DNA of 64,000 nucleotides from contig CAWKNZ010000002.1 in assembly GCA_963851265.1 (NCBI GenBank), forward strand, positions 1,600,001 to 1,664,000, written 5' to 3'. Of the stretch, positions 1-61,454 are shown in pieces (positions within the stretch are counted from its first letter, which is position 1; the number at the start of each line of letters is the position of its first letter). Position numbers and translations under genes: made by a program. The notes beneath the pieces were generated by a model. That model was not told the DNA's origin. It worked only from the letters and a program-made list of their open reading frames with translations, and searched no databases. This stretch comes from an uncultured Gemmatimonadales bacterium (GTDB lineage Bacteria > Gemmatimonadota > Gemmatimonadetes > Gemmatimonadales > Gemmatimonadaceae).

Positions 1-1121
1 TGCCAGCACGCCGCGCCCTCGTCGACGCCCCGCTCGACGAGCGAGCGGATGCGCTCGAGCTGGACGGGCGCGACGATCGCGCCGAGGTCGACGCCCTTGT
101 CGAGGGGCGCGCCGAGCCGGAGTCGCTCCATGCGCGAGCGGAGCTTGTCGACGAGGCGGTCGTGCACGCCCTCCTGCACGAGCAGGCGCGACCCGGCGCA
201 GCACACCTGCCCCTGGTTGAACCAGATCGCGTCGACGACGCCCTCGACGACGCTGTCGAGGTCGGCGTCCTCGAACACGATGAACGGGCTCTTGCCGCCT
301 AACTCGAGCGAGAGCCTCTTGCCGCTGCCCGCGGTTGCGCGGCGGATCTCCCGGCCAACATCCGTGGACCCCGTGAAGGCGACCTTGTCCACGTCGCCGT
401 GCGCGACGAGCGCGGCCCCAGTACGCCCGTCGCCGGTGACGACGTTCAGCACCCCCGCCGGCAGTCCGGCGTCGTGCGCGAGTTCGGCGAAGCAGAGCGC
501 GGTGAGCGGCGTGAATTCGGCCGGCTTGAGCACCACGGTGTTCCCCGCCGCGAGCGCGGGCGCGACCTTCCACGCCAGCATGAGGAGCGGGAAGTTCCAC
601 GGGATCACCTGCGCGACGACGCCGAGCGGGCCGTAGCCGGGGAACTCCGCGTCGAGCAGCTGCGCCCACCCCGCGTGGTGGTAGAAGTGGCGCGCGACGA
701 GCGGCACGTCGAGGTCGCGCGTTTCGCGGATCGATTTGCCGTTGTCGAGCACCTCGAGCACCGCGAGGAGACGGCTGTGCTTCTGGACGGCCCGCGCGAG
801 CGCGTAGAGGTGCCGCGCCCGCCCGTGCCCGCCTAACGTGGCCCACGCCGGCTGCGCGGCGCGCGCGGCCGCGACGGCCCGGTCGACGTCGTCCGCGGTG
901 CCCTGCGGCACGCGGGCCAGGCGCTCGCCGGTCGCGGGCTCGAAGACGTCGAACAGCTCGGCGTCCGGCGCGCGGTACCGCGCGCCCCCGATGTGGTGCG
1001 CGCCCTCGCCGCCCCGCGACGCGATCCAGCGACGCGCCTCCGCGTCCGACTCGGGCGCTGGGCCGTACGCCATAGACTGAAAGATCTCGGCGACTGTCGC
1101 GCCGGCGTCGGCCGTCGGCAT
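1..1121 (-). CDS. Aldehyde dehydrogenase family protein (ALDH16-like), 3' part runs off the window
   Basis: Not in the ORF track because it has no stop in the window. Manual translation from ATG 1121 gives MPTADAGATVAEIFQSMAYGPAPES...IPWNFPLLM...LKPAE...FTGST...LELGGKSP...NQGQVCCAGSR, the canonical ALDH motifs. The ATG overlaps the deoC stop (TGATG). Confidence 0.93.
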   Translation of the reverse strand, partial: MPTADAGATVAEIFQSMAYGPAPESDAEARRWIASRGGEGAHHIGGARYRAPDAELFDVFEPATGERLARVPQGTADDVDRAVAAARAAQPAWATLGGHGRARHLYALARAVQKHSRLLAVLEVLDNGKSIRETRDLDVPLVARHFYHHAGWAQLLDAEFPGYGPLGVVAQVIPWNFPLLMLAWKVAPALAAGNTVVLKPAEFTPLTALCFAELAHDAGLPAGVLNVVTGDGRTGAALVAHGDVDKVAFTGSTDVGREIRRATAGSGKRLSLELGGKSPFIVFEDADLDSVVEGVVDAIWFNQGQVCCAGSRLLVQEGVHDRLVDKLRSRMERLRLGAPLDKGVDLGAIVAPVQLERIRSLVERGVDEGAACW

Positions 1122-2173
1122 CAGACCATGGCGTGGCGGTGGGCGGCGGAGTAGCGCCCGGTGACGAAGTGTTCGAGCTGCCGCTCGATGTCGGTGAGCA
1201 GCGCGCTCGCGCCGATGCGGAACAGGTCCGAGGCGAGCCACCGCGTGCCCAACTCCTCGCGCATCACGTACTGGAACTCGAGCGCCTGCTTGGCGGTGCG
1301 GATGCCGCCCGCGGGCTTGAAGCCGACCATCGCGCCCGTGCGCTCGTGGTAGTCGCGGATGGCCCGGCACATCACCAGCGCGAACGGCAGCGTCGCGTTC
1401 ACGCCTTCCTTCCCGGTGCTGGTCTTGATGAAGTCCGCGCCCGCCATCATCGCGACCTGGCTGGCGCGCGCGACGTTCGCGAGCGTGGCGAGCTCGCCCG
1501 TCGCGAGAATCACCTTGAGATGCGCGTCGCCGCACGCGGCGCGCATCGCGCGCACCTCGTCGTAGAGCGCTTCCCACTCGCCGCGCAACACGTGCGCGCG
1601 CGTGATCACGGTGTCGATCTCGACCGCGCCGTCGTCGACCGACGCGCGGATTTCGGCCAGCCGCTCGCGGAGCGGCGAGAGCCCCGCGGGGAAGCCCGTC
1701 GACACGGCCGCGACCGGCACTCCCGTGCCGCGCAGCGCGTCGACCGCGGTCGCCACGTACGCGTGATAGACGCAGACGGCGCCGGCGCGGATCGCGAGCG
1801 GGGCGGCGCCGAGCGCGTCGACGAGGTCGTCGCGCAGCGGGCGCACCGCCTTGGCGCACAGGCGTCGCACGTTGGACGGCGTATCGTCACCGGCCAGCGT
1901 CGTGAGGTCGATGCAGGTGATCGCGCGCAGAAGCCACGCCGCCTGCCACGCCTTCTTCACGGTCCGGCGCGCCGGAAGCGTCGCGGCGCGCCGTTCCACC
2001 GCCGAGCGGTTCACCCGCTGTGCGCGGACCAGCGCGAGGTCGAACGGCGTCCCGGGGTTGCGCGCGAGGATCGCGTCGGCTGCGAGCGGGCCGCCGGCCG
2101 GCGTCGGCGCGAGCCACGGCCCGCGCGCACTACGCGGGCCGGGCGCGGTGACGGTTTGCGGGATCGCGTCCAT
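1121..2173 (-). CDS. deoC: Deoxyribose-phosphate aldolase (long type)
   Basis: IDLTTL, AVCVY, VSTGFPAG, EIDTVI, LKVILATGEL, ADFIKTSTGK, GFKPAGGI and RIGAS motifs. Confidence 0.96.
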   Translation of the reverse strand: MDAIPQTVTAPGPRSARGPWLAPTPAGGPLAADAILARNPGTPFDLALVRAQRVNRSAVERRAATLPARRTVKKAWQAAWLLRAITCIDLTTLAGDDTPSNVRRLCAKAVRPLRDDLVDALGAAPLAIRAGAVCVYHAYVATAVDALRGTGVPVAAVSTGFPAGLSPLRERLAEIRASVDDGAVEIDTVITRAHVLRGEWEALYDEVRAMRAACGDAHLKVILATGELATLANVARASQVAMMAGADFIKTSTGKEGVNATLPFALVMCRAIRDYHERTGAMVGFKPAGGIRTAKQALEFQYVMREELGTRWLASDLFRIGASALLTDIERQLEHFVTGRYSAAHRHAMV

Positions 2174-2206
2174 GCCCGCAATCTACGGCCCGGTGCGCGC
2201 CGAGCC

Positions 2207-2987: not shown

Positions 2988-4550
2988 ATGCCCAACGCCT
3001 CGCCACTTCCCACATCCCGCGCGCGCCGGCGTGCGCCCGCCCTGCCGCCCAGCCCGACCGCGCCGGCGTCGGCAATGCCCTGGGTGCATCGCGCCCCCGG
3101 TGTCCCGTACTTCGCGCTCGACGACGGCGCACCGTGGACGCCGATCGGCGCCAACGAGTCGATCACCTGGCCGGGACTCGACGGCCTCTTCCGGCGGCGC
3201 GACCTCGCGGGCGCGGAGGCGTACGTGCGGTACCTGCGCGAAAGCGGGGTGACGGTCCTGCGGCTGATGCTCGAGTACAGCCAGGGCCAGCACCGGTACT
3301 TCGAACGGCCCGCGGGCACGTTCAACCCGTCGATGGTCGCGCTGTGGGACGACCTGTTCGCGATCTGCGAGCGCGTCGGCATGCGGATCCTGCTCACGCC
3401 GTACGACACGTTCTTCCAGTACATCCGGTGGCGCCACCACCCCTACAACAGGCGCAACGGCGGCCCGTGCGCCGACCGTTCGCAGCTGATGGTCTGCCCC
3501 GACACGCGGAGCCTGATCAAGGCGCGGCTCGCGTTCGCGGCGGAGCGGTGGGGCGGCAGCGGGGCGCTGTTCGCGTGGGACCTCTGGAACGAGTTGCACC
3601 CCGCGCAGGGCAACAACGACTACTTCGGGATGTGGGGCTTCGTCTCCGACGTCGGCGCGCACCTGCGCGAGCTGGAGCGCCGCCTCTACGGGCGCACGCA
3701 CCCGCAGACGGTGAGCGTGTTCGGGCCCGAGCTGCTGTGGAAGCCCGAGCTGCACGAGCTGATCTTCCGCCACCCCGGGCTCGACTTCGCCAGCACGCAC
3801 TTCTACGCCGAGGAGACGATCGACGCGCCGCGCGACACCGTCGCGCCGGCGGTCGCCGCCGCCCGCCTAACGGAAGACGCGCTCGCCGAAGTGCGCGACG
3901 CGCGTCCGTTCTTCGAGAGCGAGCACGGCCCGATCTGCACGTTCAAGGACCGCGGCGTCACGCTTCCCGAAGCGTTCGACGACGAGTACTTCCGCCACAT
4001 CCAGTGGGCGCACCTCGCGTCGGGCGGCGCGGGGGGCGGCATGCGGTGGCCGAACCGCAGCCCCCACGTGCTCACGCGCGGGATGCGGGAGTCGCAGGCC
4101 GCGCTCGCGCGCGTCGCGACGCGCGTGGACTGGCCGACGTTCCAGCGCCGGTGCCTCAACGACGACGTCGTCGTGCGAGACGCGGCCGGGCGCGCACTCG
4201 CGCGGGTGACGTCGCGGCCGCACACGCCGGCCGGCCACCCGCCCGTCGTTCCGATGGCGGGGCGCGTGGTGGCTGCATTCGCGTGCGGCGATGCGCGCCA
4301 GGCCGTGGCATTCCTGCTGCGCGCCGACGCGCTCGCGCCCGACGGACGCGTGCGTCGCGACGTTCCGCCGCGCGAGGTGACGCTCGACGTTCCGGGGCTC
4401 GCGGCGGGCGAGTACACGGTCGCGGAATGCGACGCGACAACCGGCCGGGAGCGGCGGGCGCACGAGGTCTCGCACGCGGGGGGTGACCTGACCCTGCCGG
4501 CGGTACCGCTGGTGGCCGACGCGGTGCTACTCGTTCGGGCGCGCGCGTGA
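2988..4550 (+). CDS. Putative glycoside hydrolase, clan-A/GH5-like TIM barrel
   Basis: YFALDDGAPWTPIGAN, GVTVLRL, LFAWDLWNE (acid/base NE), STHFY, PFFESEHG (candidate nucleophile). Confidence 0.65.
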   Translation: MPNASPLPTSRARRRAPALPPSPTAPASAMPWVHRAPGVPYFALDDGAPWTPIGANESITWPGLDGLFRRRDLAGAEAYVRYLRESGVTVLRLMLEYSQGQHRYFERPAGTFNPSMVALWDDLFAICERVGMRILLTPYDTFFQYIRWRHHPYNRRNGGPCADRSQLMVCPDTRSLIKARLAFAAERWGGSGALFAWDLWNELHPAQGNNDYFGMWGFVSDVGAHLRELERRLYGRTHPQTVSVFGPELLWKPELHELIFRHPGLDFASTHFYAEETIDAPRDTVAPAVAAARLTEDALAEVRDARPFFESEHGPICTFKDRGVTLPEAFDDEYFRHIQWAHLASGGAGGGMRWPNRSPHVLTRGMRESQAALARVATRVDWPTFQRRCLNDDVVVRDAAGRALARVTSRPHTPAGHPPVVPMAGRVVAAFACGDARQAVAFLLRADALAPDGRVRRDVPPREVTLDVPGLAAGEYTVAECDATTGRERRAHEVSHAGGDLTLPAVPLVADAVLLVRARA

Positions 4551-4705
4551 CGTCGCGCGCGCGACGCGATTGAGGAGGGCAATCGACGGCTGGCTTAACA
4601 CGCGGCGTGGCGCGGCGTCTTCCTGACGTGCGCGACGTCGGATGCGGCGAGTTAGGCCGGTCGGTTCCGCCGCGCACCAGCCCTCCACTCCTCGTCTCAG
4701 GTCCC

Positions 4706-5716: not shown

Positions 5717-5751
5717 GCCGCGCCGCCGTCGCCGCGACGGCCTCGCTACGC

Positions 5752-6173: not shown

Positions 6174-6175
6174 CA

Positions 6176-6640: not shown

Positions 6641-8725
<2,085 letters not shown>

Positions 8726-9695: not shown

Positions 9696-11291
9696 TCAGC
9701 CCGGAACGCGGGGGAGTTCCGCGAGCACGGGGTAGGGCGCGCGGTCGACGCCCGCGTCGTCGCGCGGCCACGCGTCGCGCAGCGCGTCGAGCACGTCGGC
9801 GAGCGTAACGCCGCGCACGCCGCCCCGGCGCGCGGTGGCCAGCTCGCCGGCCCGACCGTGGACCCACGCGGCGGCGGCGCCACGCCACGCCGCGGTCTCG
9901 TCCGCCGGCGCGTGAGCGAGCAGGGCGGCCGCGACGCCGCCGAGGACGTCGCCGCTCCCGGCGGTGCCCAGCGCCGGCGTGCCGGTCGCACTCACGAGGG
10001 TCGTCGTGCCGTCGCTCACGACCGTCGGAACGCCCTTGAGCAGGACGGCGGCGCGCGCCGTGCGCGCGGCCTCGCCCGCGATCTCGAACCGCCGCGCCAG
10101 CACGTCGTCGACCGTCGACCCGAGGAGACGCGCGAGTTCGAGGGGGTGCGGGGTGAGCAGCGCCGGACGTCCGGCGAGCAGGGCGCCTAACGCGTCGAGT
10201 CGGCCGGCGTAGTGGTTGAGCGCGTCGGCGTCGACGACCACGGGCCCGCGCCACGCGGAGAGCACGCGTTCGAGCAGCGCGGCCGCCGCCTCCGAACGGC
10301 CGAGTCCGGGACCGAGGAGCACCACGTCGGCCCATTCGAGCACGGCGTGCTCGAGCGTGGCGGCGTCGTCCTGAGCGGGCCACGCCGTCGCCATCGCCGC
10401 GTGGAGGCCGTTCTGCAACACGGGGACGCTCTCGGGCGCGACGACCGCCCGCACCATCCCCGCCCCGCTGCGGAGGGCGGCGTCCGAGGCGAGCACGGCG
10501 GCGCCCGCCATGCCCGCAGCGCCGCCTATCACGGCGACCTTCCCGCGGATGCCCTTGTGCGCTGAGGCCGCGAACGGGCGCGCGGCGCGCGCGCGCACCG
10601 CGTACTCGGCGACGAGCGTCGGCAACGCATCGGCCGGCGGTTGCGAGAGCGCCGCGTCGTCGAGTCCGATGTCGAGAATCGCGATGGCCCCGGCGGCGTC
10701 GCGGTCGACGAGCAGGCCGCGCTTGAGCGTGCCGAACGCGAGCGTCAGGTCGGCGCGGATCGACGCGCCGATCGCCTCGCCGGTGGTCGCGTCGACGCCC
10801 GTCGGCACGTCGAGGGCGACGACGACCGGCGGCGCGTTAGGCGCTGCCGCCTGCGCCGCGGCGAGGTGCCGCACGTACCCCGCCACGTACTCGCGTGCCG
10901 GCGCGCGCGCCCCGGTACCGAGCACCCCGTCGACGATCACGCGCTCGGCGCCGGTCGGCGCGGGCACGTCGCCCGCGTCGCGGGCCCGGTCGAACTCGAA
11001 GCGCGCGTCGTCCGTCACCGGGGCGTCCGCGCCCCATTGCGTCACGCCCACGCGCACGCCATACCGTCGGAGGGCACGCGCCACCACCCACGCGTCGCCG
11101 CCGTTGTTGCCCGGGCCCGCGTGCACGGCGACGCCCGCGTGCAGCAGGCCGGAGTACCGGCGGACGATCTCTGCGGCCGCCGCGGCGCCCGCGCGCTGCA
11201 TGAGCGCGCGCGATGGCACTCCGGCGGCGATCGTCGCCGCGTCGGCGGCCGCGGCCTCCGCCGCCGTCGTGATGCGAACCGTCGGGGTCAC
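9696..11291 (-). CDS. nnr: Bifunctional NAD(P)H-hydrate epimerase/dehydratase
   Basis: LMQRAG, GPGNNGGD, ALDVPTG (YjeF-N); HKG..G, GPGLG, VDADALN, TPHPLE, LGTAGSGDVLGG (YjeF-C). Confidence 0.95.
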   Translation of the reverse strand: MTPTVRITTAAEAAAADAATIAAGVPSRALMQRAGAAAAAEIVRRYSGLLHAGVAVHAGPGNNGGDAWVVARALRRYGVRVGVTQWGADAPVTDDARFEFDRARDAGDVPAPTGAERVIVDGVLGTGARAPAREYVAGYVRHLAAAQAAAPNAPPVVVALDVPTGVDATTGEAIGASIRADLTLAFGTLKRGLLVDRDAAGAIAILDIGLDDAALSQPPADALPTLVAEYAVRARAARPFAASAHKGIRGKVAVIGGAAGMAGAAVLASDAALRSGAGMVRAVVAPESVPVLQNGLHAAMATAWPAQDDAATLEHAVLEWADVVLLGPGLGRSEAAAALLERVLSAWRGPVVVDADALNHYAGRLDALGALLAGRPALLTPHPLELARLLGSTVDDVLARRFEIAGEAARTARAAVLLKGVPTVVSDGTTTLVSATGTPALGTAGSGDVLGGVAAALLAHAPADETAAWRGAAAAWVHGRAGELATARRGGVRGVTLADVLDALRDAWPRDDAGVDRAPYPVLAELPRVPG

Positions 11292-17587: not shown

Positions 17588-17605
17588 CGCGTTAGGCCGC
17601 GCCGG

Positions 17606-31306: not shown

Positions 31307-31348
31307 CTCGCGCCGGCACCGGCCACCGCCCAACACGCCGCCCCACCC

Positions 31349-37797: not shown

Positions 37798-38101
37798 CTT
37801 CGCCAAGTCGCTGTCACAGTGCGAGTTGCCGTCGTGTCCCACGACCTGCGCGGTCCGCGCGGACGCGGCGTCGCTCGATGGCGCCGACGAGACGGTGCGG
37901 GTCGCCGACCGCCTCGGGTCGCAGCAAGTTCGCCACGACGGACGCGTTAGGGCTCGCTCTGCGCGAGTGCGACGCGCGCCGTCGCGCCGCTCCACGACGA
38001 GCGCGGCGTGCGGCGGTTCGCGAGGCGCGCCGAGCTGCGTGAGCGGCCGTTCCGCAGGACCCGTGCGGACGCGCGGGTGGCGGGGCGCGCCGCTGAACGC
38101 G

Positions 38102-38275
38102 TTAGGCCGTCGTCGTCCTGCGGCGACGGGCCACGCCGGCCAGACCGAGCAGCCCCGTCCCGAGCAGCGCCCAGGTCGCTGGCTCTGGGGTCACCGTGCC
38201 CGGTGTGTACTGAAGATCGTCGTACGTGTAATACGGGACGTCCGACATCAGGTCGACGCGGCTGATGCCGGCCTC
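38102..38275 (-). pseudogene. Orphan PEP-CTERM sorting-domain fragment (gene remnant or microprotein)
   Basis: ...YTYDDLQYTPGTVTPEPATWALLGTGLLGLAGVARRRRTTTA* has a PEP motif, TM helix and basic tail. No signal peptide is visible upstream in frame. Confidence 0.6.
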
Positions 38276-48465: not shown

Positions 48466-49743
48466 TCAGGTTTTCCGCGGCTTCTTCTTCGCGGCCGGGA
48501 ACAGGACGTTGTTGAGGATCAACCGGTAACCGGGCGAATCCGGGTGCAGCGCGAGGTCCGTCGGCGGCGAGCCGATCGCGTGCTGCGGGTCCTCGGGGTC
48601 GTGCCCGCCGAGGTACGTCCACGCGCCCTTGCCGTAGTCGCCATGGATGTACTTGACCCACGGCGCGCCGTCCTCGGTGGCGAGCACCGTCACGCCGGGC
48701 TTCACGGTCGCCTTCGTGAACGACGTGGTCACGCCGTAGAAGTCGGGGATGCTCGTGCGGTGGTCCTGCACGAGCATCGACGGGACCGGGTCGAATTTGG
48801 CGGAGAACGCGAACAGCTGGAACGTGCCTAACGGCTGGCGCCGCCCCGGCACGTTCACCTGGTGTCCGTCGATGTCGGAGAGCGCCGTGACGTACGGCGG
48901 CGCGAGGTGGGCGTTCTGAAACGCGAACGAGCGCGCCCACAGCATCTTGCGGTCCGCGTCGGGGTCGGGCGGCGGCCCGCCCGCCGCGATCCCGGCGAAG
49001 TTGACCGACTCGCCTGCGATCGCGAGGTCGAGCGACTCGGTCGCGCCGCACATCGCGAACAGGAAACCGCCGTTCTCGACGTAGGTGCGGATCCGCTCGG
49101 CGACCGCCTTCTTGAGCGCCGGGACCGACGCATAGCCGTGGCGCGCGGCGGCCTCCACCAGCACCGCGTGCTGCTCGCGGTACCAGGGCGCGGCCGAGTA
49201 GGTCAGCGCGAGCTTGTTCTGCTGGCCCGTGAAGTCCTCGTGGAAGAGGTGCACCCACTCGTACTTGCCTAGGGCGCCGGCGAGCACGTCGTCGTCCCAG
49301 ACCTTCTCGAACGGAATGCCGGCGTACGTGAGCGCGAGCGTGACCGCGTCGTCCCACGGCTGGCCGCCGGGCGGCGTGTAGATCGCGACGCGTGGCGCCT
49401 TCTCGAGCGGCACGGCGTCCATGTTCCCGCCGGACATCTCGCGCCGCACGTCGGCGACCTGGACGGCGTCCTCGGGCTCGACGCTCACGCCGGCGAGCGC
49501 GGCCCGGCGCCGCAGCTCCGGCAGGTCGGGGACGAAGAACGCACCGCCCCGGTAGTTCAGCAGCCACTCGGCCTTCTGGCCGTCCTTGAGCACGCCGTAG
49601 ACGAGGCCGTAGGCGCGCAGGTGGTTGCGCTGCCCGTCGTCCATCGGGACGAGGAGCGTCTGCGCGCGGGCCGCGGGCGCGACGAGCGGCGCGAAGGCGA
49701 GGGCGGCCGCGGCGAGTGCGCGGCGTGGGCGGGACGACGTCAT
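48466..49743 (-). CDS. Secreted protein with a class-I glutamine-amidotransferase-like domain
   Basis: Signal peptide; LLVPMD..QRNHLRAYG, WLLNYRGG, PWDDAVTLALTYA, HEDFTGQ, GGFLFAMC, GGHDPED, SPGYRLILNNVLFPAA. Confidence 0.75.
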   Translation of the reverse strand: MTSSRPRRALAAAALAFAPLVAPAARAQTLLVPMDDGQRNHLRAYGLVYGVLKDGQKAEWLLNYRGGAFFVPDLPELRRRAALAGVSVEPEDAVQVADVRREMSGGNMDAVPLEKAPRVAIYTPPGGQPWDDAVTLALTYAGIPFEKVWDDDVLAGALGKYEWVHLFHEDFTGQQNKLALTYSAAPWYREQHAVLVEAAARHGYASVPALKKAVAERIRTYVENGGFLFAMCGATESLDLAIAGESVNFAGIAAGGPPPDPDADRKMLWARSFAFQNAHLAPPYVTALSDIDGHQVNVPGRRQPLGTFQLFAFSAKFDPVPSMLVQDHRTSIPDFYGVTTSFTKATVKPGVTVLATEDGAPWVKYIHGDYGKGAWTYLGGHDPEDPQHAIGSPPTDLALHPDSPGYRLILNNVLFPAAKKKPRKT

Positions 49744-49746
49744 GCG

Positions 49747-51729
49747 TTAGGCGCTGCCGAGGCGGTCGAGCTCGCGGCGCGCGATCGGGACGAGCGCGCT
49801 GTCCGGGTAGCCCATGATCAGGTGTTCGAAGTGCGAGCGGGCCGCGGTTCGGTCGCCGGCCGCGAGCAGTGACCGGGCCCACGCGAGTTCGGCGGCGGGC
49901 GCTTCGGGCGCGTCGGCCGCGTCGGCGAGGATCTGCCGCCAGAGGGCGGCCGCGCGCGCGCGGTCGCCGGCGCCGCTCGCGACGTCGGCGGCCGCAGCCA
50001 TCAGCGGCGCGCGCACGTCGGGGAGCGCGCGGGCCGCGCGCTCGAGCGCCGCCACCGATCCCGGCGCGTCGCCCCGTGCCGCGGCGAGCAACGCGTCGCC
50101 GAGGCCAGGGGCGGAGTCGGCGCGCGTGCGCGCGAGCACGGCGCGCGCAGCGGCGCGCACGTCAGCGAGCAGCCCGCCGCGCGGGTCGAGTGCGGGGGGC
50201 GAGTGGGCAAAGTTCGCCCGCGCGCCGCGCAGGTTGCCGGTCGCGAGCGCGAGCCACCCTGCCGCCTCGCCGCTGTCGGCGCCGACGCGGCGCAGCGCCG
50301 CGGCCGCGCGCGGCACGTCCCCGCGCGCGATCCAGGCCGCCGCGAGCGCGTCGGCCGCGGCGTTCGCGACGGCGCTGCCGGGTGCGCTCCCGGCGGCACC
50401 GGCGGCGGCGCTTCGCGCCGGGATTGGCATCTCGGCGGCGACGCGCTCCGCCTCGTCGACGCGGCCGAGCGCGGCGAGCGCCTGGACGCGGAGTAAGCGG
50501 AGCGGGGCGGCCGTCGAGTCACGCGACTCGGCGCCCGCGCGCTCGCGGTCGAGGAGCGCGAGCGCGCGCGCCGGGTCGCCGCCCTGCAAGGCGTCGTCCG
50601 CGGCCCGGGTGAACGCCTCGTGGGCATCGCCGCTCCCCCGCGGGCTGGCGTCGAGCACGCGCGCCCATGCATCCGCCGCGGTGCGGCGCGCGCCGCTCGC
50701 GTCCAGTTCGGCCGCGACGATCCGCCACAGGTCGCGAGATTCCGTGCTCAAGGGCAGCGCCGTTGCGAGCGCCCACGCCGCACTCGGCCGGTGCCACGCG
50801 ACGAGGAGCGCGGCCGCGGCGCGCCGGGCAGCCGCGTCGCGCTCGATCGGCGGCGTAGACGGCGCACCCGCCGGGGATGACCCGGTCGCCGCCGCGTTCG
50901 ACTGGGCGATGCCGGTCGCCGCGAGCGCGCCGACGACGGCGTCGCGCACCGTGTCGGGCGCGGGCCGGAGGGCGTACACGGCAGCGTCGGCGTACACCGC
51001 GTCGTCGGTGAGCACGTCGCGCCAGGTCCGCGCCGCATCCACCCACGCTCCGTCCGCGACCAGCGCGCGCGCGCGCGACGGCCGCAGGGCGCTTCTCGCC
51101 TCGCGCGAGAGCGGCGCGTGGTCGGCGTCGGCGAGGACGCTGTCGGCCGCCGCGCGCCGCGTCGCGTCGAGCAGCAGACGGAGGTACTCCAGATACGGTC
51201 CGGCGTCGGCCGGCGACGAGCGCCGCCATAGGTCGTACGAGGCGCGCGCCTGGGCGTCGCGCCCCATCATGGCGAGGGTGCGCAGGGCGATCGAGTGCGC
51301 GACCGGGTCGGCCGGGTGCTGGCGTAACACGTCCGCGGCGAGCGCGAGCGACGAGTCGGGGTGCCCCTCGTCGCTCCACAGCCGTTCGAGCCCGAGCAGC
51401 GCGGCGTCGCGGGAATCCGCATCGCGCGCCGTGTCGGCGAGGGCGAGCGCACGACGGAACGCCGCGACCGCCTCGCGCGGTCGAGACGTTTCGAGGTCGA
51501 ACGCGCGTGCGAGCGCGAGCGGGGCCGTCGCGGGAAGCGCCAGGGCCGACCGCGCCGGCGCGCCCGCCGCGGGTGCCGACGTCGGCGGGGCGGGCGAGGT
51601 CTTCGCGGCCCCGGCGGGCGCCTGCGCCGCGCCGGCGCGCGGCGTTAGGCCGACGGCGGCCGCGGCGGCCAGGCACGCGGCGGCCGAGAGCGCGAGCGCC
51701 CCGGCGCGGCGCCGACGATTCGGGGTCAC
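49747..51729 (-). CDS. Secreted TPR-like protein
   Basis: GTG overlaps the upstream stop; signal peptide; helical Ala-rich repeats; C-terminal AARSHFEHLIMGYPDSALVPIARR. Confidence 0.7.
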   Translation of the reverse strand: MTPNRRRRAGALALSAAACLAAAAAVGLTPRAGAAQAPAGAAKTSPAPPTSAPAAGAPARSALALPATAPLALARAFDLETSRPREAVAAFRRALALADTARDADSRDAALLGLERLWSDEGHPDSSLALAADVLRQHPADPVAHSIALRTLAMMGRDAQARASYDLWRRSSPADAGPYLEYLRLLLDATRRAAADSVLADADHAPLSREARSALRPSRARALVADGAWVDAARTWRDVLTDDAVYADAAVYALRPAPDTVRDAVVGALAATGIAQSNAAATGSSPAGAPSTPPIERDAAARRAAAALLVAWHRPSAAWALATALPLSTESRDLWRIVAAELDASGARRTAADAWARVLDASPRGSGDAHEAFTRAADDALQGGDPARALALLDRERAGAESRDSTAAPLRLLRVQALAALGRVDEAERVAAEMPIPARSAAAGAAGSAPGSAVANAAADALAAAWIARGDVPRAAAALRRVGADSGEAAGWLALATGNLRGARANFAHSPPALDPRGGLLADVRAAARAVLARTRADSAPGLGDALLAAARGDAPGSVAALERAARALPDVRAPLMAAAADVASGAGDRARAAALWRQILADAADAPEAPAAELAWARSLLAAGDRTAARSHFEHLIMGYPDSALVPIARRELDRLGSA

Positions 51730-54700
51730 GGTGCGGCGTTCAGGCGCCGGAAGTACTCGAGGACGAGCCGGCGCTCCTCGGGCGGCAGCGTGCGCAGCTC
51801 GTTCCACGTCGGCGGCGCGACTCGCGTGGCGGATCGGCCACGGGTGGCCCCGTCGGCCGGCGCGCCGTCCCCCACCGTCACCCCCGCGCGCGCCTGGCGC
51901 GGTCCCTGGTCGTCCTGCTCGTCGCGTTCGAGCGACTGCCCGGCCTCAAGGAGTTTGCGGTAGAGCTGCTGCTGGCGGGCGAGCGTCGCCGCATCGCGCG
52001 CCGCGCCGCCGGCGGCTTCGCGGTCAAGCGCAGCGGCGAGTGTACGCGCTTCGCGCGCGAGTTCGTCGCTGCGGCCGCTCGGGTCGCCGTCGCCCAGCTG
52101 TTCGAGCCGGTCCGCGATGGCGCGCTGCTGGTCGGCAAGGCGACGCGCGCCATCGCGACCGCCGCTCCCCTGGCCGGGTACGCGGGCGGCGCCCTGCCCT
52201 TCCCCGGGCTTGGCGCCCCGCCCCGTCTTGCCCTCCGCGCCCGCGCTCCCCGAACCGGGCTGGGGCAGGCCGAGCGACTGCGCGTTGAGCCGGGCCTGTT
52301 GTCCCGCGGCGGCCCGGAACTCGGCGAGCACGTCCTCGGCTCCGGCCGCGCTCGCCGCGTCGCGCACCCGCGCGCGGTCGCGCACGAGGGCCCCCGCGGC
52401 GCGCGCGAGCGCGTCCTGTGCGTCGGCCATCGCCGCGTCGGGATTCCGCCCGCCGCCGCGCGGCGCCCCGCCGCGCCCGAGCTCGCCGCCCGGCGTGCTG
52501 CCGCTCGGCGATCCGCCGCCACTCGGCGAGGCGCCAGACGCCGAGCCGCTCGGGGGTTCGCCGCCGGGAGACCCGCCGCCGGGTTGACCGCCCTGCGCGC
52601 CCCCCTGACGCTCGAGCGCGCGCGCCGCAGCGCCAACTTGCTGGCGCGCCTCGTCCATCGCGCGCCGCGTGCGCTCCGAAAGCAGCGCCGAGGTGCGCCC
52701 CGCCTGCGCGAGCCGGCGCGCGGTCTGCTCCACGCCGTCGCGCACGGCGGCCTCTGCGCTCCGCGCGCCAGCCGGGTCGGCGCCCGACCTCGCCGCCTCG
52801 CGCACCGCGGCCTGCTCGCGCGCGAGCTGCGCGGTCTCGCTCGCCGCGCGGTCGAGTTCCGCGCCTAACGCGGTCTTCCACGCATCGATCTGCGCCGCGC
52901 GCCCCTTTGCCAGCGCGTCCGCCGCCGCGCGCATCTCCGCCGACGCGGCCTGCGCGGACGCCTCCGCCCCGCCGTCGCCGCCGTCCTGGGCGCCGGACGG
53001 ACTCGCGCCGGACTGGTTCGCCCCAGGCTGATTCGAGCCAGGCTGATTCGAGCCAGGCTGACTCGCGCCCTTCGGCGCGCCGGACGCTTTCGCCGACGCC
53101 TGTGCGGCCGCACGCTGCATCGCCTGCGCCGACCTGGCCGCGTGGGAGTTGGCCTGCGCCGCCGCGGTCGCGCCCGCCGCGGCCTGCTCGCGGTTCAGCC
53201 GCGCGCGAAGCGAGTCGATCGCGTCGCGCACCGCGGTCGCGCGCGCGGCGGTCTGCGCCGGCGACTCGCCGGCAGTGCGCTCGGCGCGCGAGGCGGCCGA
53301 CTCCTGCCCGGCGCGCGGGACCGCACGCGCCTCGGCGGCCGCGACCTCGCGCGCCTCGTCACCCAACGTCTGCATCGCGCCCTCGAGCGCGGCGCGGCGT
53401 AGCACGTCGGCGGTGCGCTCCAGCCGCTCACGCAGCGCGCGCTGCGCTTCGGCCAACTGCTCCAACGTTTCGCGCGTCTGCGACGCGCTCATCCCGGCGC
53501 CGCCCTGCGCCATCGCGCCGAGCTTCGCTTCGAGTTCGGGGGTGAGCGCCTCGCGCAACATGCGGCGCGCGTCGGCCAGCTGCCGCGCGAGCGCCGTGTC
53601 GAGCGCGCCCGCCTGCTGCAGGCGCCGCTCGAGCGCCTCGGTCTGCGCGCGCGCGGCCGCCACCGTCGACGCGAGCTGCCGCTGTTGGGCGGCGAGGGCG
53701 CGCGCGCGCTCGGCCGCCTCGTAGCCTAACGGAGCACCCGCGGCGTTCGGCGGCGACCCCGCGGCGGCCTCGCCGCGCGCGGCCGCCGCACGCTCCGCGT
53801 CCGATCCGGCCGCGCGACTCGTCGGCGAGCTGCCCGCGGCGCCCGCGAACGCGCGGCTCCGCGCGGCCTCGGCCGTCCGCTGCTGCAGGTCGCGGGCGGC
53901 GGTGAGCGCGGCCGCGACGCCGGCGAGCGCGGAATCGCTCGTCGCCCGCGCCGCCGTGCGGAGCGCGGTCACGGTCGGTGCGGACAGCACGAGCGGCGCA
54001 CTCCAGCCGCGCTGCGCCCACGGCGACGCGTCGACGGCCTCGACGCGCACGACCGCCGTCTCGCCGGGGCCGATCCCGAGGCGCGCGGGGTCGACGGTGG
54101 CCGTGCCGCTCCACGCGGCGGTGATTCCCGCACCCGCGGCGAGCAGCACCGCCGGCGCGCCGGCGGCGGCCTCACGCCCGTCGGCCCCACGCCGCAACAC
54201 GTGCAGCCGCACGGAGGCGAGGCCGTGGTCGTCGCTCGCGGTGACCGCGACGGCCACGGGCGACGCGCCGTCGTACGCCGCCGTGCGCAGTGCGGCGGCA
54301 GCGACCGGCGCCGCGTCGGGCACCGCGACGACGACGAACGGCTCCGGAACGTCGACGGGGCCGCCGTCGCGTGCGACCGCGTCCCACGCGAGACGCACCG
54401 CACCGCCCGGCGTCCAGCGCACCGCGAGCGAGTCGCCATCGCGGGCCGCCGCGTACGCCGCGCCGCCGGCGACGAGCGCCGCGCGCGCGAGCGGCGCGGA
54501 CGCGTGCGCCCGCAGTTCGAGCACCGTCCCGCGCGGCACGCGCACCGTGTCGGACGGCGGAAGCTCCGCGTCGGGCACGCCGAGGTACACGGGGTAGACC
54601 GCGTGCAGCCGTACGCCGCCGACGAAGGCGCGGTCGTCGACCGCGACCCGGAGCGTGTCGGTGCGCGCGCGCCCATCGGTGGCCACCGCGGCGAGGTCCG

Positions 54701-55475
54701 CGTCGAGCGCGCCGATCGCGAACGCCGCGCGCCCGCGGGCGTCGGGCACCGCCTCGCGCGTCTCCCACCCGCGCCCCGCGACGCGCCACGCGAGCGCGAC
54801 GCGGCGGCGCCCCGGGGCGTCGAGCGTCAGCTGCACCGCGCGCCCGCGCGCGGTACGCGCGGGCGCGCCGACGAAGTGCAGCGGGGCGAGCAGCGTTCCG
54901 CGCGCCGCGTCCACCGGGTGCGCGAGCGCGGCCGCGCCGTCGTCCCACCGGCGCGCGCTCGCGACGAGCAGCGCGACCCCCGCGGCGAGGGCGACGCCGC
55001 CGCCGGCCGCGCCGCGAGCGAGTTCGCGCCGCCACGCCGGCGCGAGCGCGTCGGCGCGCGGCGAGAGCGCGGGCGCGAGCTGCGCCGCCGCGAACGCGCC
55101 CATCGTCCCGGCCCCGCCGACCTCGAGCGCGACGCGGAGCGCGCCCGCGCGGAGCGCGCGCTCGGCCTCCACGTGCCGCACCACCGCGTCGCGCGCGGTC
55201 GCGCGGCGCACCCGGCGCGCGGCCGCGGCCGCCCCCGCGGCGCCGAACGCGCCTAACGTCACCCAGCACAGGGCGGGCGCGGCCGCCGGCCCCGAGAGCC
55301 AGCGCCCGTCGCCGAGCGCCCAGACCGCGCCGGCTGCGACCACGGCCACGCCGGCGCCCGCGGCACCCACGCCGGCGACGCGCGCCAGGCGCACCGCGCC
55401 GGCACGCTCGCGCGCGACGCGGTCGGCCAGCGGCTCGGCCGCGATCGGGAGGAGTGGCCCGACGGCGGTGCTCAT
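51726..55475 (-). CDS. DUF4175-like large membrane-anchored coiled-coil protein
   Basis: N-terminal TM segments, beta-rich region (YPVYLG, VPRGT, ASDDHGL), long Q/A coiled coils, C-terminal PPEERRLVLEYFRRLN; ATG at 55475. Confidence 0.72.
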   Translation of the reverse strand: MSTAVGPLLPIAAEPLADRVARERAGAVRLARVAGVGAAGAGVAVVAAGAVWALGDGRWLSGPAAAPALCWVTLGAFGAAGAAAAARRVRRATARDAVVRHVEAERALRAGALRVALEVGGAGTMGAFAAAQLAPALSPRADALAPAWRRELARGAAGGGVALAAGVALLVASARRWDDGAAALAHPVDAARGTLLAPLHFVGAPARTARGRAVQLTLDAPGRRRVALAWRVAGRGWETREAVPDARGRAAFAIGALDADLAAVATDGRARTDTLRVAVDDRAFVGGVRLHAVYPVYLGVPDAELPPSDTVRVPRGTVLELRAHASAPLARAALVAGGAAYAAARDGDSLAVRWTPGGAVRLAWDAVARDGGPVDVPEPFVVVAVPDAAPVAAAALRTAAYDGASPVAVAVTASDDHGLASVRLHVLRRGADGREAAAGAPAVLLAAGAGITAAWSGTATVDPARLGIGPGETAVVRVEAVDASPWAQRGWSAPLVLSAPTVTALRTAARATSDSALAGVAAALTAARDLQQRTAEAARSRAFAGAAGSSPTSRAAGSDAERAAAARGEAAAGSPPNAAGAPLGYEAAERARALAAQQRQLASTVAAARAQTEALERRLQQAGALDTALARQLADARRMLREALTPELEAKLGAMAQGGAGMSASQTRETLEQLAEAQRALRERLERTADVLRRAALEGAMQTLGDEAREVAAAEARAVPRAGQESAASRAERTAGESPAQTAARATAVRDAIDSLRARLNREQAAAGATAAAQANSHAARSAQAMQRAAAQASAKASGAPKGASQPGSNQPGSNQPGANQSGASPSGAQDGGDGGAEASAQAASAEMRAAADALAKGRAAQIDAWKTALGAELDRAASETAQLAREQAAVREAARSGADPAGARSAEAAVRDGVEQTARRLAQAGRTSALLSERTRRAMDEARQQVGAAARALERQGGAQGGQPGGGSPGGEPPSGSASGASPSGGGSPSGSTPGGELGRGGAPRGGGRNPDAAMADAQDALARAAGALVRDRARVRDAASAAGAEDVLAEFRAAAGQQARLNAQSLGLPQPGSGSAGAEGKTGRGAKPGEGQGAARVPGQGSGGRDGARRLADQQRAIADRLEQLGDGDPSGRSDELAREARTLAAALDREAAGGAARDAATLARQQQLYRKLLEAGQSLERDEQDDQGPRQARAGVTVGDGAPADGATRGRSATRVAPPTWNELRTLPPEERRLVLEYFRRLNAAP
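53023..53061. repeat. 15-bp tandem repeat (2.6 copies) inside the DUF4175-like gene
   Basis: CCAGGCTGATTCGAG twice plus CCAGGCTGA, encoding SQPGSNQPGSNQPG. Confidence 0.85.
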
Positions 55476-56185: not shown

Positions 56186-56189
56186 CTGC

Positions 56190-57104
56190 CTAACGCTCGC
56201 CCACGCCCGCCGCCGACCGATCGACCCCACGATCCTCCCCGCGTTCTTCCTGCGTGATCCGGTACGCCGCATTCCGCCCGATGCCGAACGCCTCCGCCAA
56301 CGCCTGCGCCGCGGCGCGGGGCGGCGTGCCGCCCGTGAGGAGCGCGCGCGCCCGCTCCCGCACCGCCGCCTCGTCGATCGCGTCGTGCGCGGCGGTCGCG
56401 GGGCGCCCCGCGACTACCAGCACGACCTCGCCGCGCGGCGCGGTGGTGCCGTGATACGCCGCGAGTTCGCCGAGCGTTCCCCGCCGGATCTCCTCGTACT
56501 GTTTGGTCAGCTCGCGGGCGACCGCGGCCGGGCGATCCGCGCCGCAGGCCTCCGCGAGGTCCGCGAGGGTGTCGGGCACCCGGCCCGGCGCCTCGTACAC
56601 GATGGTGGTGTACGGCGACGCGGCGATCGCGGCGAGGTCTGCCGTCCGTTCGCGCCCCCGTCGCGCGAGGAACCCGAAGAACGTGAACCGCTCGGCGTCG
56701 AGCCCGCTCGCCACGAGCGCGGCGAGCAACGCCGACGCGCCCGGCAGCGGCACGACGGCCACGCCACCGGCGATTGCGGCCGCGACGAGCCGCGCGCCGG
56801 GGTCCGACAGGAGGGGCGTGCCCGCATCCGAGACGAGCGCGAACGTCTCGCCGGCGACCAGCCGCGCGACGAGTCCCTCGCTTCGGCGCGCTTCGTTGTG
56901 CTCGTGCACCGACAACGTCGGCGCGCGGGAGCCCAGGTGGTCGAGCAGGCGTCGCGAGTGTCGCGTGTCCTCGCACAGTACCGCGTCGGCCGTCCGCAAC
57001 ACCTCGGCCGCGCGCGCCGTGATGTCGCCGAGGTTGCCGATCGGCGTCGAGACGAGGAAGAGCGTGCCTCGCGCGGTGGCGCCGGGTGGCGCGGTGCCCG
57101 ACAT
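56190..57104 (-). CDS. rsmI: 16S rRNA (cytidine1402-2'-O)-methyltransferase
   Basis: LVSTPIGNLGDIT, CEDTR, VSDAGTP..SDPG, YEAP.R, RELTK.YEE, RGEVV. Confidence 0.96.
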   Translation of the reverse strand: MSGTAPPGATARGTLFLVSTPIGNLGDITARAAEVLRTADAVLCEDTRHSRRLLDHLGSRAPTLSVHEHNEARRSEGLVARLVAGETFALVSDAGTPLLSDPGARLVAAAIAGGVAVVPLPGASALLAALVASGLDAERFTFFGFLARRGRERTADLAAIAASPYTTIVYEAPGRVPDTLADLAEACGADRPAAVARELTKQYEEIRRGTLGELAAYHGTTAPRGEVVLVVAGRPATAAHDAIDEAAVRERARALLTGGTPPRAAAQALAEAFGIGRNAAYRITQEERGEDRGVDRSAAGVGER

Positions 57105-59646: not shown

Positions 59647-60434
59647 CGCACGGCGCCCCGCCCGAGCCCGGGACCGACGCCCGCGTGGTGCCGATCCGCA
59701 CCCTCGCCTACGACGGCGACACCGCGTTCGTCGTCGAGCGTGCGAGCGACCCGCCGGCGACGGCCGCCGGGCGGTTCCGCGCGGCGTCGGCGCCGGTGGC
59801 CGCCCGCGTGGCCGAACAGCTGCGCGTCGCGCGCGACCTGCTCGCGACGCCGGGTCTCGACGCCGGTGCGCGCGCGGCCGTCGGCCGCGGCCTGCGCGCG
59901 GCGGTCGCCGAGTTGCGCGAGTTGGCGGAGAGCTACGACGTCGCCCCCGTGGCCGACGTCTGCCGCGCGCGCGAGGGCGGCGCGGAATCGCTCGATCCGC
60001 GCGCGGTCGCCGGTCTCGAACACGTCGCCCACGGCCTGCTCGACGCGATGGCGGCGGCTCCGGCACGCGACACGCCCGAGGCGCCCGACGCCGCGCCCGA
60101 CGCACTCGTGCCGCCCGACGCCGCGCCGCGGTCCGCCCCGGCGTTCCGGCCGCCGACCGGGCCCGCGCTCGTCGAACTGCTCGAGCACGGCATCACCGGA
60201 CTCGAGAAGTGGCCGGGCACGCCGCTCGACATGCCGGCCGTTCCGGCGCACCCCGCCGCGCCGGCCGCCGACGCGATCGTGTCGATCGAGGCGCTCTGCT
60301 ATCGGGGGCGCGCCGCGCTCGACCGCGCGCGCGAGGTTCGCGACGTGCTCCGATCGGCGCCGGGCGGCGGCGCACCCGACCCGGAACTCCTCGCCGAGCT
60401 GTTCGACCTGCTCGACCTCGCCGCGACGGACTGA
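59643..60434 (+). CDS. Hypothetical protein
   Basis: ATGA overlap with pdxJ; helical C-terminus [20 protein letters not shown]...ELFDLLDLA. Confidence 0.65.
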
Positions 60435-60440
60435 CCCGAC

Positions 60441-61454
60441 GTGCGGCTCGACTGGAAGGCGGGGCTGGGCATCGCGCTGAGCGCGGTGCTCCTGTGGTGG
60501 ACCCTTCACGACATCGACTTCGCGGTGGTGTTGGACGTGCTGCGCGCGTCCAACCCGTGGCTCTGGCTCGCGTCGACCGTCGCGGCGACGCTCATCTTCC
60601 CGGTTCGCGCGCGCCGCTGGCGCACGATCCTCGACCCCGTCGTGCCGGCGCTGCCCTTCCGCCCGCTCTGGCGCGCGACCGCCGTCGGCATGATGGTGAA
60701 CAACGTCGCGCCCGCGCGCGCCGGCGAGATCGCGCGCGTCGCCACGCTCGTCCGCGAGCGCCCGGACGTGCCGTTCACCGCGGCCCTCGCCTCGCTCGCC
60801 GTCGACCGCGCGTTCGACGCGATCGTCCTGCTGCTGCTGCTCTTCGTCGCGCCGCTCGACCCGGCCTTCCCGCGCGGCGTGCGCCTCTACGGCCAGTCGG
60901 TCCCCGCGCTCGCGTTGGGCACGACGGTGCTCACCGTCGTCCTGATCGCCGGCCTGTACGCGCTGGTCATGGCGCCGGACGGCTTCGCGCGCCTGCTGGC
61001 GCGCGCCACGCGCCGGCTCGCGCCGCGCTGGGAGGCGCGCGGGACGGCGGCGGTGCGCAGCTTCGCCGACGGCCTCGGCGTCCTGCGCGACCCGCGGCGG
61101 TTCGCGGCGGTGTTCGCGTGGAGCCTCGCGCACTGGCTGCTCTGCGCGTGGTCGGTGTGGGTGGGGTTCCGCGCGGTGGGGATCACCGCCCCGTTCTCCG
61201 CCGCGCTCTTCCTCAACAGCCTGCTCAGCGTCGCCTCGGCCGTCCCCGCGTCGCCGGGCTTCTTCGGCCTGTTCGAGAGCGTGTCGCGCGTGGGCCTGGC
61301 CGTCTACGGCGTGCCGGCCGCACTCGCCGTGAGCTGGGCGTTAGGCTACCACGTGCTCACGTTCATTCCGATCACCGTGCTCGGCTTCGTCCACCTCGCG
61401 CAACTCGGCCTCACGCTCCACCAGGTCGCGGACGCCGCGGGGTCCCCCGCGTGA
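60441..61454 (+). CDS. Lysylphosphatidylglycerol-synthase-TM/flippase-like membrane protein (UPF0104)
   Basis: RARRWRTIL, NNVAPARAGEIAR, DRAFD, PASPGFFGLFE; multiple TM segments. Confidence 0.88.
   Translation: MRLDWKAGLGIALSAVLLWWTLHDIDFAVVLDVLRASNPWLWLASTVAATLIFPVRARRWRTILDPVVPALPFRPLWRATAVGMMVNNVAPARAGEIARVATLVRERPDVPFTAALASLAVDRAFDAIVLLLLLFVAPLDPAFPRGVRLYGQSVPALALGTTVLTVVLIAGLYALVMAPDGFARLLARATRRLAPRWEARGTAAVRSFADGLGVLRDPRRFAAVFAWSLAHWLLCAWSVWVGFRAVGITAPFSAALFLNSLLSVASAVPASPGFFGLFESVSRVGLAVYGVPAALAVSWALGYHVLTFIPITVLGFVHLAQLGLTLHQVADAAGSPA

Follow-up and report, generated by a model that had tools for sequence, protein, structure and literature searches.

A seven-base word, GCCTAAC, is a real and strong signal at the level of DNA in the genome of an uncultured Gemmatimonadales bacterium, and adds both a new word and a new lineage to the known cases of hyper-abundant genomic words. 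The stretch under study, referred to below as the window, spans 64,000 nucleotides (contig CAWKNZ010000002.1, positions 1,600,001 to 1,664,000; G000:C2:1600001-1664000) of assembly GCA_963851265.1, here called G000, which comprises 4.6 Mb in 12 contigs with 73% G+C. The window contains 26 exact copies of GCCTAAC or its complement GTTAGGC, 15 on the + strand and 11 on the - strand, as compared with 2.04 ± 1.52 copies (largest number, 7) in 100 dinucleotide-preserving shuffles. Genome-wide, 1,762 copies are found, divided 877/885 between the strands, versus 96 expected from an order-2 Markov model. In its behavior the word is most like the DNA uptake sequence (DUS), the uptake signal sequence (USS), and highly iterated palindrome 1 (HIP1), and it is spelled like the R box of integrons. 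The interpretation that we favor, with a probability of roughly 40%, is that the word is a transformation-linked self tag of this kind, recognized by a putative reader.

Expectations from Markov models of orders 1–3 range from 96 to 160 copies in G000; models of higher order absorb GCCTAAC via the counts of its own sub-words. A ranking of k-mers against a Markov model, proposed in a preliminary description of the window, places GCCTAAC first by z-score among the 7-mers of G000 and GCCTAACG first among its 8-mers (1,396 copies vs. 50 expected). The density of the word is one copy per 2.6 kb in G000 and reaches one per 0.65 kb in genome G008.

The full word can be written as Y-GCCTAAC-R, i.e., (C/T)GCCTAAC(G/A), with seven exact bases and half-specified flanks. 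Genome-wide, the position before the core is C in 54% and T in 22% of the copies, and the position after it is G in 79%, A in 14%, C in 4%, and T in 3%. The preliminary description had reported that the next base is G (21 copies) or T (5 copies) and never C or A, which holds in the window but not in the genome, the five T's of the window being atypical. Outside these flanks, there is no conservation except for codon periodicity. In the 248 purely intergenic copies, the flanks are still Y (77%) and R (91%), and because the preferences persist there, they belong to the word itself. The core is sharply defined: 1,762 of the 1,794 occurrences of GCCTAA in G000 have C as the next base, and 1,762 of the 1,848 occurrences of CCTAAC are preceded by G. 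The 21 one-letter variants of GCCTAAC occur at 0.15 to 2.2 times expectation and are not enriched as a group; the only raised variant is GCCCAAC (the TTG-GGC spelling), whose 2.2-fold excess lies within the range of codon-pair effects. Among the papers listed by literature searches, outside the scope of which lay subscription journals and supplements, none gives an account of genome-wide GCCTAAC abundance. The motif had been called undescribed, which stands for its abundance but not for the sequence as such, which fits the attC consensus RYYYAAC/GTTRRRY.

The word within and between genes

Coding constraints were assessed with a set of 3,769 genes, called with a codon-usage model and covering 90% of G000. 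Copies within genes number 1,295, whereas 40 rounds of within-gene shuffling of synonymous codons gave 76 ± 8 (maximum 94); for the genes of the window, the corresponding numbers are 17 and 1.5 ± 1.0. The excess over this codon-preserving null, which had been named beforehand as a comparison on which the idea of a DNA-level signal could fail, is thus 17-fold, compared with 1.5- to 2.4-fold for control 7-mers, which exceed the null through codon-pair effects. The copies in G000, and the share of compatible sites that they occupy, are distributed as follows.

xxG-TTA-GGC (X-Leu-Gly): 989 copies in genes, among 1,313 TTA codons in all; 989 of 10,910 compatible sites occupied (9.1%)
xxG-CCT-AAC (X-Pro-Asn): 203 copies in genes; 203 of 1,476 compatible sites occupied (13.8%)
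xGC-CTA-ACx ([SRGC]-Leu-Thr): 78 copies in genes; 4.1% of compatible sites occupied
GTT-AGG-Cxx (Val-Arg-x, two rare codons needed): 25 copies in genes; 0.7% of compatible sites occupied
Intergenic or gene-edge: 467 copies, including 118 GCC-TAA stops (of 444 TAA) and 70 GT-TAG stops (of 760 TAG)
Ala-stop (Ala-TAA-C): 124 of 867 compatible sites occupied (14.3%)
xGT-TAG-GC: 83 of 1,375 compatible sites occupied (6.0%)

Two of the six reading frames are closed to the word because its own stop codons fall there, and the other four are filled to between 0.7% and 13.8%; the statement in the preliminary description that the motif ignores reading frame is therefore too simple, even though several frames are indeed used. 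The cheap compatible coding sites are filled to 9–14% in both orientations, and a strong excess of antisense copies vanishes once coding opportunity is counted. This similar occupancy in both orientations implies that the word acts on double-stranded DNA and not at the level of codons or RNA. Its drive overrides codon usage: in a genome of 73% G+C, three-quarters of the TTA codons and more than a quarter of the TAA stops owe their existence to the word, in agreement with the earlier remark that otherwise rare codons are used where they complete it. TTA is decodable in G000, since a tRNA-Leu(UAA) gene is present. Each copy within a gene also creates an off-frame stop, and we considered the hidden-stop (“ambush”) idea on this basis; it cannot explain the 7- to 9-bp specificity or the intergenic excess.

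The window consists of ordinary housekeeping DNA (eno, glyA, thrS, valS, purN/purH, gltX, lexA, pdxJ, and prs). Its 26 copies, listed below, comprise 13 of the form xxG-TTA-GGC, 3 xxG-CCT-AAC, 3 xGC-CTA-ACx, 5 in stop codons, and 2 that are intergenic.

297..303, + strand: gene on the - strand reads GAG-TTA-GGC (E-L-G, within SLELGGK)
831..837, + strand: gene on the - strand reads ACG-TTA-GGC (T-L-G)
3865..3871, + strand: gene on the + strand reads CGC-CTA-ACG (R-L-T)
4651..4657, - strand: intergenic
7991..7997, - strand: gives the GCC-TAA stop of the acyltransferase gene 7992-8726 (-)
10185..10191, + strand: NAD(P)HX repair gene (-) reads GCG-TTA-GGC (A-L-G)
10836..10842, - strand: NAD(P)HX repair gene (-) reads GCG-CCT-AAC (A-P-N)
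17591..17597, - strand: intergenic, immediately downstream of the thiolase gene
20525..20531, + strand: TonB-dependent receptor gene (-) reads ACG-TTA-GGC
22534..22540, + strand: thrS (-) reads CAG-TTA-GGC (Q-L-G)
25772..25778, + strand: valS (+) reads CCG-CCT-AAC (P-P-N); genome G190 spells the site alike
27251..27257, - strand: valS (+) reads TCG-TTA-GGC (S-L-G after KMSKS)
28789..28795, + strand: gene on the + strand reads CGG-CCT-AAC (R-P-N)
31301..31307, + strand: gives the GCC-TAA stop of the formyltransferase gene 30578-31306 (+)
36681..36687, - strand: gene on the - strand reads GGC-CTA-ACG (G-L-T)
38101..38107, - strand: gives the GCC-TAA stop of the PEP-CTERM gene 38102-38536 (-)
40109..40115, - strand: gltX (+) reads GCG-TTA-GGC (A-L-G)
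45425..45431, + strand: DinG-type helicase gene (-) reads GAG-TTA-GGC
48826..48832, + strand: gene on the - strand reads CCG-TTA-GGC
49746..49752, - strand: gives the GCC-TAA stop of the gene 49747-51729 (-)
51644..51650, - strand: gene on the - strand reads GGC-CTA-ACG (G-L-T)
52863..52869, + strand: gene for a protein of 1249 amino acids (aa) on the - strand reads GCG-TTA-GGC
53724..53730, + strand: the same 1249-aa gene (-) reads CCG-TTA-GGC
55251..55257, + strand: the same 1249-aa gene (-) reads ACG-TTA-GGC
56188..56194, + strand: gives the CGT-TAG stop of the methylase-fold gene 56190-57104 (-)
61340..61346, - strand: gene on the + strand reads GCG-TTA-GGC (A-L-G)

The preliminary description was accurate on these points. 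Its count, strands, and coordinates are all exact, as are the examples that it cited (SLELGGK at 297, thrS at 22534, PPPN in valS at 25772, the site after KMSKS at 27251, gltX at 40109, and CTA-ACG at 3865), and the word does form stop codons and occur between genes. A run of four co-oriented genes at 48466-56185 (-), encoding proteins of 425, 660, 1,249, and 237 aa, gave a Pfam match for the 237-aa protein alone (DUF4159); the three large genes, whose products are without a match, together hold five copies of the word.

Placement, conservation, and range

Since the GC skew of G000 is not strong enough for its replichores to be mapped, gene orientation and the position of dnaA were used as proxies in a test for polarity. 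Antisense copies make up 119 of 153 (78%) in genes co-oriented with their region and 24 of 27 (89%) in counter-oriented genes, and intergenic copies split 22:22 by strand. The cumulative intergenic skew of the word is flat across a 0.6-Mb stretch that contains a flip in gene orientation, and the region to the right of dnaA on contig C1 likewise lacks polarity. The word is thus without replication polarity, and its orientation tracks the gene strand. An apparent strand polarity in three other genomes was rejected, as their DNA carries the word on both strands (e.g., 22+/22- over 80 kb of G149:C1).

Copies avoid each other. Spacing was compared with 300 simulations in which genic copies were drawn from compatible sites by class and the others from non-coding DNA, with the following numbers of adjacent copies.

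Within 100 bp: 26 observed, 78 ± 8 in the null
Within 200 bp: 46 observed, 147 ± 11 in the null
Within 500 bp: 193 observed, 328 ± 14 in the null
Within 1 kb: 507 observed, 578 ± 16 in the null

Close neighbors are depleted in all four combinations of orientation. A mutational bias by itself is hard to reconcile with this mutual avoidance, which speaks instead for a drive or benefit that levels off within a given stretch of DNA. The density of the word climbs with local G+C, and permissive positions are favored: convergent spacers have 1.16 copies/kb, as compared with 0.58 for tandem and 0.37 for divergent ones, and coding DNA has 0.31. The few close pairs lie at the 3' ends of genes, often in convergent spacers. 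We considered whether such pairs might be operators beside the gene of a reader; the 30 annotated genes flanking 17 pairs turned out to be ordinary and unrelated.

The longest word-free gap of G000 measures 45 kb (C1:182877-227963), as compared with a simulated maximum of 21 ± 3 kb, and consists of housekeeping DNA around mnmG-parA-parB. We rejected a foreign origin for it, since it carries housekeeping genes with a normal GC3 (G+C at third codon positions) and is syntenic with congeners at 74–81% identity. The orthologous stretch is word-poor in G073 (4 copies vs. ~27 expected from its mean density) and G125 (~10 vs. ~26), but not clearly so in G039, which belongs to another genus and in which the parAB gap was not seen beyond 6.4 kb. 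Canonical parS sites with up to two mismatches were not found in G000, G125, or G073; among the genomes searched, parS sites near parB occur only in G039 and G099. The gap may reflect avoidance of a loading zone for ParB and SMC.

Conservation was examined in three congeners that are syntenic with G000 over 71–125 kb at ~80% DNA identity. There, 14 of 24, 28 of 57, and 28 of 50 of the G000 sites are kept exactly (49–58%), compared with a mean of 27% for all 7-mers and 26–38% for the same dipeptide spelled CTC-GGC, which is also the form found most often where the word is not kept. The word sites are thus maintained, with turnover. The valS gene gives an example at larger distance (G039 is left out of this comparison): G048 and G190 have seven copies each, G008 four, G000 two, and G107, a congener of G048, none, although the dipeptides are kept. 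The site at 27251 also carries the word in G073, G125, G164, G048, and G008, and not in G107 or G190. Certain conserved Leu-Gly and Pro-Asn positions recur as sites of the word from genus to genus, and some copies arise via amino acid changes. The proposal that the word is kept up at the level of DNA is thereby borne out by the codon-preserving null, the parity of orientations, the flanks in non-coding DNA, the conservation among congeners, and the recurrence of the same word in many independent assemblies.

To describe its range, the word was tallied in 201 genomes of the family (also used below for IntI, ComEC, and PilT; the set includes the unpublished G007, G033, G034, and G134) and across the phylum (also used for a methylase; the set includes the unpublished G007, G247, G275, and G347, on none of which a claim rests individually). 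High-word genomes, defined by at least 500 copies, number 62 of 201 in the family, with a maximum of 8,747, and the baseline is ~10–100 copies, well below a reversed-word control. The high counts are a lineage-specific gain, and they vary within genera: G107 has 99 copies versus 5,256–6,209 in G048, G150, and G183 (genus g49), and the ranges are 194 versus 999–2,598 in genus g16 and 1,167 to 8,747 in genus g62. Outside the family, 3 of 198 sampled genomes of the phylum reach 500 copies, and these three belong to a single genus of the sister family. In other genera, the high-word genomes share the core and slightly prefer A as the base that follows the G.

The idea that low-word genomes use another “dialect” was discarded, as ~200 kb each of G107 and G050 hold no alternative hyper-abundant word. 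In the 199 kb sampled from G107, AAAGCAG(A), AGAAAGCA, and AGGGTTCA occur 28–45 times versus 1.5–8 expected; these probably come from a repeat element that is dispersed in this genome. Two genomes of genus g105 in the sister family, G318 and G341, have markedly unequal strand counts of GCCTAAC (161 vs. 79 and 95 vs. 182), unlike all high-word genomes, which are strand-balanced; tandem arrays or a one-strand repeat family may be responsible. As to the source organism, a small protein encoded at C10:154939-155352 (-) of G000 has a match to PF00556, a family of light-harvesting antenna proteins (E = 9.7e-8), suggesting a phototroph.

Possible readers of the word

The favored model is that of a self tag linked to transformation. 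A sequence-specific reader would drive or select Y-GCCTAAC-R into every chromosomal position that tolerates it, fragments that bear the word being preferentially taken up, or preferentially surviving uptake, via a type IV pilus/ComEC route. Alleles that gain the word would then spread among conspecifics until approximately one copy per 0.6–2.6 kb is reached. Two parts of this model are inferred, namely the involvement of uptake or transformation and the existence of a receptor. The avoidance between copies fits a benefit per fragment, and the spacing of DUS is described as matching the size of conversion fragments (PMC2397512). The other known hyper-abundant words, DUS, USS, and HIP1, are all linked to transformation, for HIP1 according to PMC13756078.

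The likeness to DUS and USS extends over many features, namely numerous copies of one short, non-palindromic word in both orientations, placement in tolerated frames of genes, enrichment between genes, conservation above background, copies that are spaced rather than clumped, effects on protein sequence, and the presence of a type IV pilus/ComEC competence gene set in G000. Counts of 1,471, 765, and 1,892 per genome are given for USS/DUS in PMC2817400, and the densities in G000 and G008 lie within the USS/DUS range. The same source states that USS also shapes amino acid sequence and that USS/DUS occupy frames with preferred codons. The systems differ in that GCCTAAC belongs to a different phylum, is a different word of 7 bp with two half-specified flanks, and rarely forms terminator-like inverted pairs (six close inverted pairs). 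HIP1 (GCGATCGC) resembles it in being exact, hyper-abundant, conserved, and quasi-periodic, with a function that was long obscure and is now linked to transformation; PMC13756078 describes HIP1 as recognized by methylases and as enhancing transformation. HIP1 is palindromic and has the methylases DmtA and DmtC, whereas GCCTAAC is asymmetric and no methylase tracks it.

The competence toolkit of G000 comprises ComEC, PilT, DprA, and ComEA-like HHH_3 proteins, and a regex-based, incomplete screen for the N-terminal motif yielded eight pilin-like genes. Across the family, ComEC (PF03772) was found in 184 of 201 genomes, i.e., in 60 of the 62 high-word and 124 of the 139 low-word genomes; the two high-word genomes in which it was not found are in 460 and 910 contigs. 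ComEC was likewise not found in genera g18 (0/3), g44 (0/4), and g63 (0/4), all 11 sampled genomes of which are low-word (19–103 copies). This pattern points to a lineage-wide loss of the DNA import channel and is compatible with a role in uptake, although it carries no statistical weight. Some of the ComEC-less genomes of these three genera have 1–5 contigs.

Several observations weigh against such a tag. ComEC and PilT (the latter in 200 of 201 genomes) are near-universal in high- and low-word genomes, so that the machinery does not explain who has the word, and we rejected both as discriminators of its abundance; G107 keeps both, yet has 99 copies where three congeners have 5,256–6,209. The word is patchy among genera and congeners, whereas the tag of Neisseriaceae or Pasteurellaceae is family-wide, and it forces rare codons, unlike USS/DUS. 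Recognition looks all-or-none, one-letter variants not being enriched, an exactness sharper than that of USS/DUS and more like that of an enzyme or recombinase. Depletion in genome-specific DNA is no more than a trend (1 copy in 9.3 kb, as compared with 51 in the 105.7 kb shared with congeners; p = 0.13). Nor does a tag alone explain why the word matches the integron R box exactly. No receptor was found; a search with ComP_DUS (PF16732) is uninformative, giving no match in G000 and none in its control genomes. The USS receptor, for comparison, is described as still not known (10.1101/2025.06.16.659825). More generally, none of the tested candidates (IntI, ComEC, PilT, and the methylase discussed below) tracks the abundance of the word, and no reader was identified elsewhere or in the window, for which the preliminary description had also found no cognate protein.

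The word might alternatively be the binding site of an abundant chromosome-bound protein (a nucleoid-associated protein, an occlusion factor, or an organizer), selected for a roughly even density along the chromosome. An exact, strand-symmetric word whose copies avoid each other below ~500 bp would suit such a protein, as would the low density in promoter-bearing divergent spacers (lowest of the spacers) and the high density in convergent ones, and the gap over mnmG-parA-parB fits the avoidance of roadblocks in a ParB/SMC loading zone. We nevertheless consider this explanation somewhat unlikely. No candidate protein was found, G000 lacks a canonical parS at the mismatch threshold given above, the gap was not seen beyond 6.4 kb in G039, and a housekeeping organizer is not expected to vary 60-fold between congeners (G107 vs. 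G048, G150, and G183).

Based on spelling, the word could also be read by the integron machinery, i.e., by the integron integrase (IntI) or by some accessory factor bound to the R box of attC or attI. The copies would then be IntI half-sites (landing pads, decoys, or nick-stimulated points), or an uptake reader would have evolved toward cassette sites. attC sites contain RYYYAAC and GTTRRRY words 57–141 bp apart (PMC3053210), and GCCTAAC fits RYYYAAC and its complement GTTRRRY, the inverse core and core of attC. The chance that a random 7-mer matches the canonical core is ~1 in 10,000; a chance match is therefore unlikely, and some causal link is plausible. G000 itself has a cassette array at C10:186001-206000, with 31 small called open reading frames (ORFs), almost all of which share a strand. 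Folding of four of its word pairs (105–129 nt) showed R-box arms CGCCTAACG/CGTTAGGCG in every case, which is the 9-mer form in which the word occurs most often (751 copies); two pairs fold far better than shuffled sequences (z-scores of -4.6 and -6.0), and the other two have z-scores of -0.9 and -2.1. In addition, contig C51 of G292, a low-word genome of the sister family, carries the word in attC-like pairs 85–95 bp apart. Real attC hairpins of G000 thus have the spelling of the word, including its flanks.

The phyletic data, however, contradict the simple version in which IntI drives accumulation. IntI (TIGR02249 over the curated cut-off) occurs in 115 of 201 family genomes, in 40 of the 62 with at least 500 copies and 75 of the 139 with fewer. 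It is neither necessary nor sufficient, as G073 (5 contigs, 97% complete, 2,703 copies) has no IntI over the cut-off and G107, with 99 copies, has two and a third just under it; presence not being associated with abundance, we rejected the integrase as the driver. The only match over the cut-off in G000 (C6:5244-6044) is partial, covering positions 2–265 of the 315 in the model. Whereas attC sites are inverted pairs that fold at the ends of cassettes, just 8 of 392 adjacent +/- pairs in G000 have attC-like spacing (66–149 bp), so that more than 99% of the copies are lone words in ordinary genes. Genomic copies were also considered as attG landing sites for cassettes and rejected, the published attG consensus being only GWT; insertion of cassettes into genomes is stated to need GWT only (bioRxiv 10.1101/2022.09.11.507474). 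Overall, a reading by integron machinery is unlikely. We think it a little more doubtful still that the word is an uptake or post-uptake self tag that borrowed its spelling from the attC R box, a proposal drawn from the same match. Two side observations concern the integrase: its prevalence looks unusually high for a bacterial family, and the match in G000 lies on the strand opposite to an 890-aa ORF with serine-recombinase domains.

A third alternative is that a DNA methyltransferase targets the word, which accumulates by methylation-coupled repair or selection, in the manner of HIP1 with DmtA/DmtC and not as an uptake signal. An asymmetric word of 7 bp with AAC at its end looks like a possible site for enzymes of the MmeI/Eco57I type, and G000 encodes an 1,141-aa N6-adenine methylase of this type beside a 790-aa SNF2/ResIII helicase (C7:579717-585511, - strand); HIP1 shares the exactness, conservation, and quasi-periodic spacing (PMC13756078). 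The pair is chromosomal and vertically kept. A query with the methylase found it in 161 of 251 phylum genomes (family f1, 50/52; f2, 103/113; f6-f12, 0/77), at ~52% identity in G107, G048, G150, G183, and G008 and ~40–55% through the order. We rejected it as the reader because low-word genomes have kept it too and it is conserved throughout the order, including 103 of the 113 genomes from the sister family, which is almost entirely low-word, and it is intact in G107, which no region of the alignment sets apart. A crude, incomplete regex screen for motifs revealed no other clear DNA methylase in G000, and one-letter variants are much too scarce for short-patch repair to have supplied 1,762 copies from them. 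Methylation as the basis of the word is therefore improbable.

GCCTAAC has in common with Chi and KOPS (FtsK-orienting polar sequences) that it is a short, over-represented word of the chromosome; Chi and KOPS are read by machines that process DNA. A role like that of Chi, in which the word would restrain an AddAB-type nuclease during repair of double-strand breaks, would be in keeping with a density of ~1 per 2.6 kb and with an AddAB-like pair with two PD-(D/E)XK nuclease domains at C3:244.5-251.7 kb. RecC was not found in G000, and RecBCD was accordingly rejected as an end-processing reader. Known Chi sites favor the leading strand and show much weaker enrichment, and Chi and KOPS are both skewed with the direction of replication, whereas GCCTAAC shows no such bias; an 18- to 28-fold enrichment, rare codons, and mutual avoidance are not traits of Chi. 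A polar recombination signal, one of the candidates raised in the preliminary description, is disfavored on these grounds, and we regard it as very improbable.

Finally, the view that the excess is a side effect of biases in codon pairs or in mutation, or an assembly artefact, suggested by the 1.5- to 2.4-fold excess of other 7-mers over the codon-shuffled null, is refuted for practical purposes by the 17-fold excess of the word, its higher density and persistent flanks outside genes, and its presence in many independent assemblies while sister genomes of similar composition hold 10–100 copies.

The word in the biology of the family

Very few lineages are known to have hyper-abundant exact words, namely Neisseriaceae (DUS), Pasteurellaceae (USS), and cyanobacteria (HIP1), and uptake-type sequences are treated as a trait of Pasteurellaceae and Neisseriaceae in 10.1101/2025.10.24.684340. 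Such words bear on the questions of whether bacterial “sex” favors an organism's own kind and whether selfish drive or selection is at work. GCCTAAC lies in a different phylum, among mostly uncultured soil bacteria, and its close relatives, which range from baseline to ~8,700 copies, provide a natural on/off series in which the reader should be findable by phylogenetically corrected correlation with gene presence.

The identity of the word with the recombination core of integron cassettes hints at a link between transformation and cassette capture. If the self tag did borrow its spelling from the attC R box, competence would import DNA of the organism's own kind together with integron cassettes of any source, each cassette carrying two words. 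Natural transformation would then be mechanistically coupled to cassette capture, in a family in which more than half of the sampled genomes are IntI-positive.

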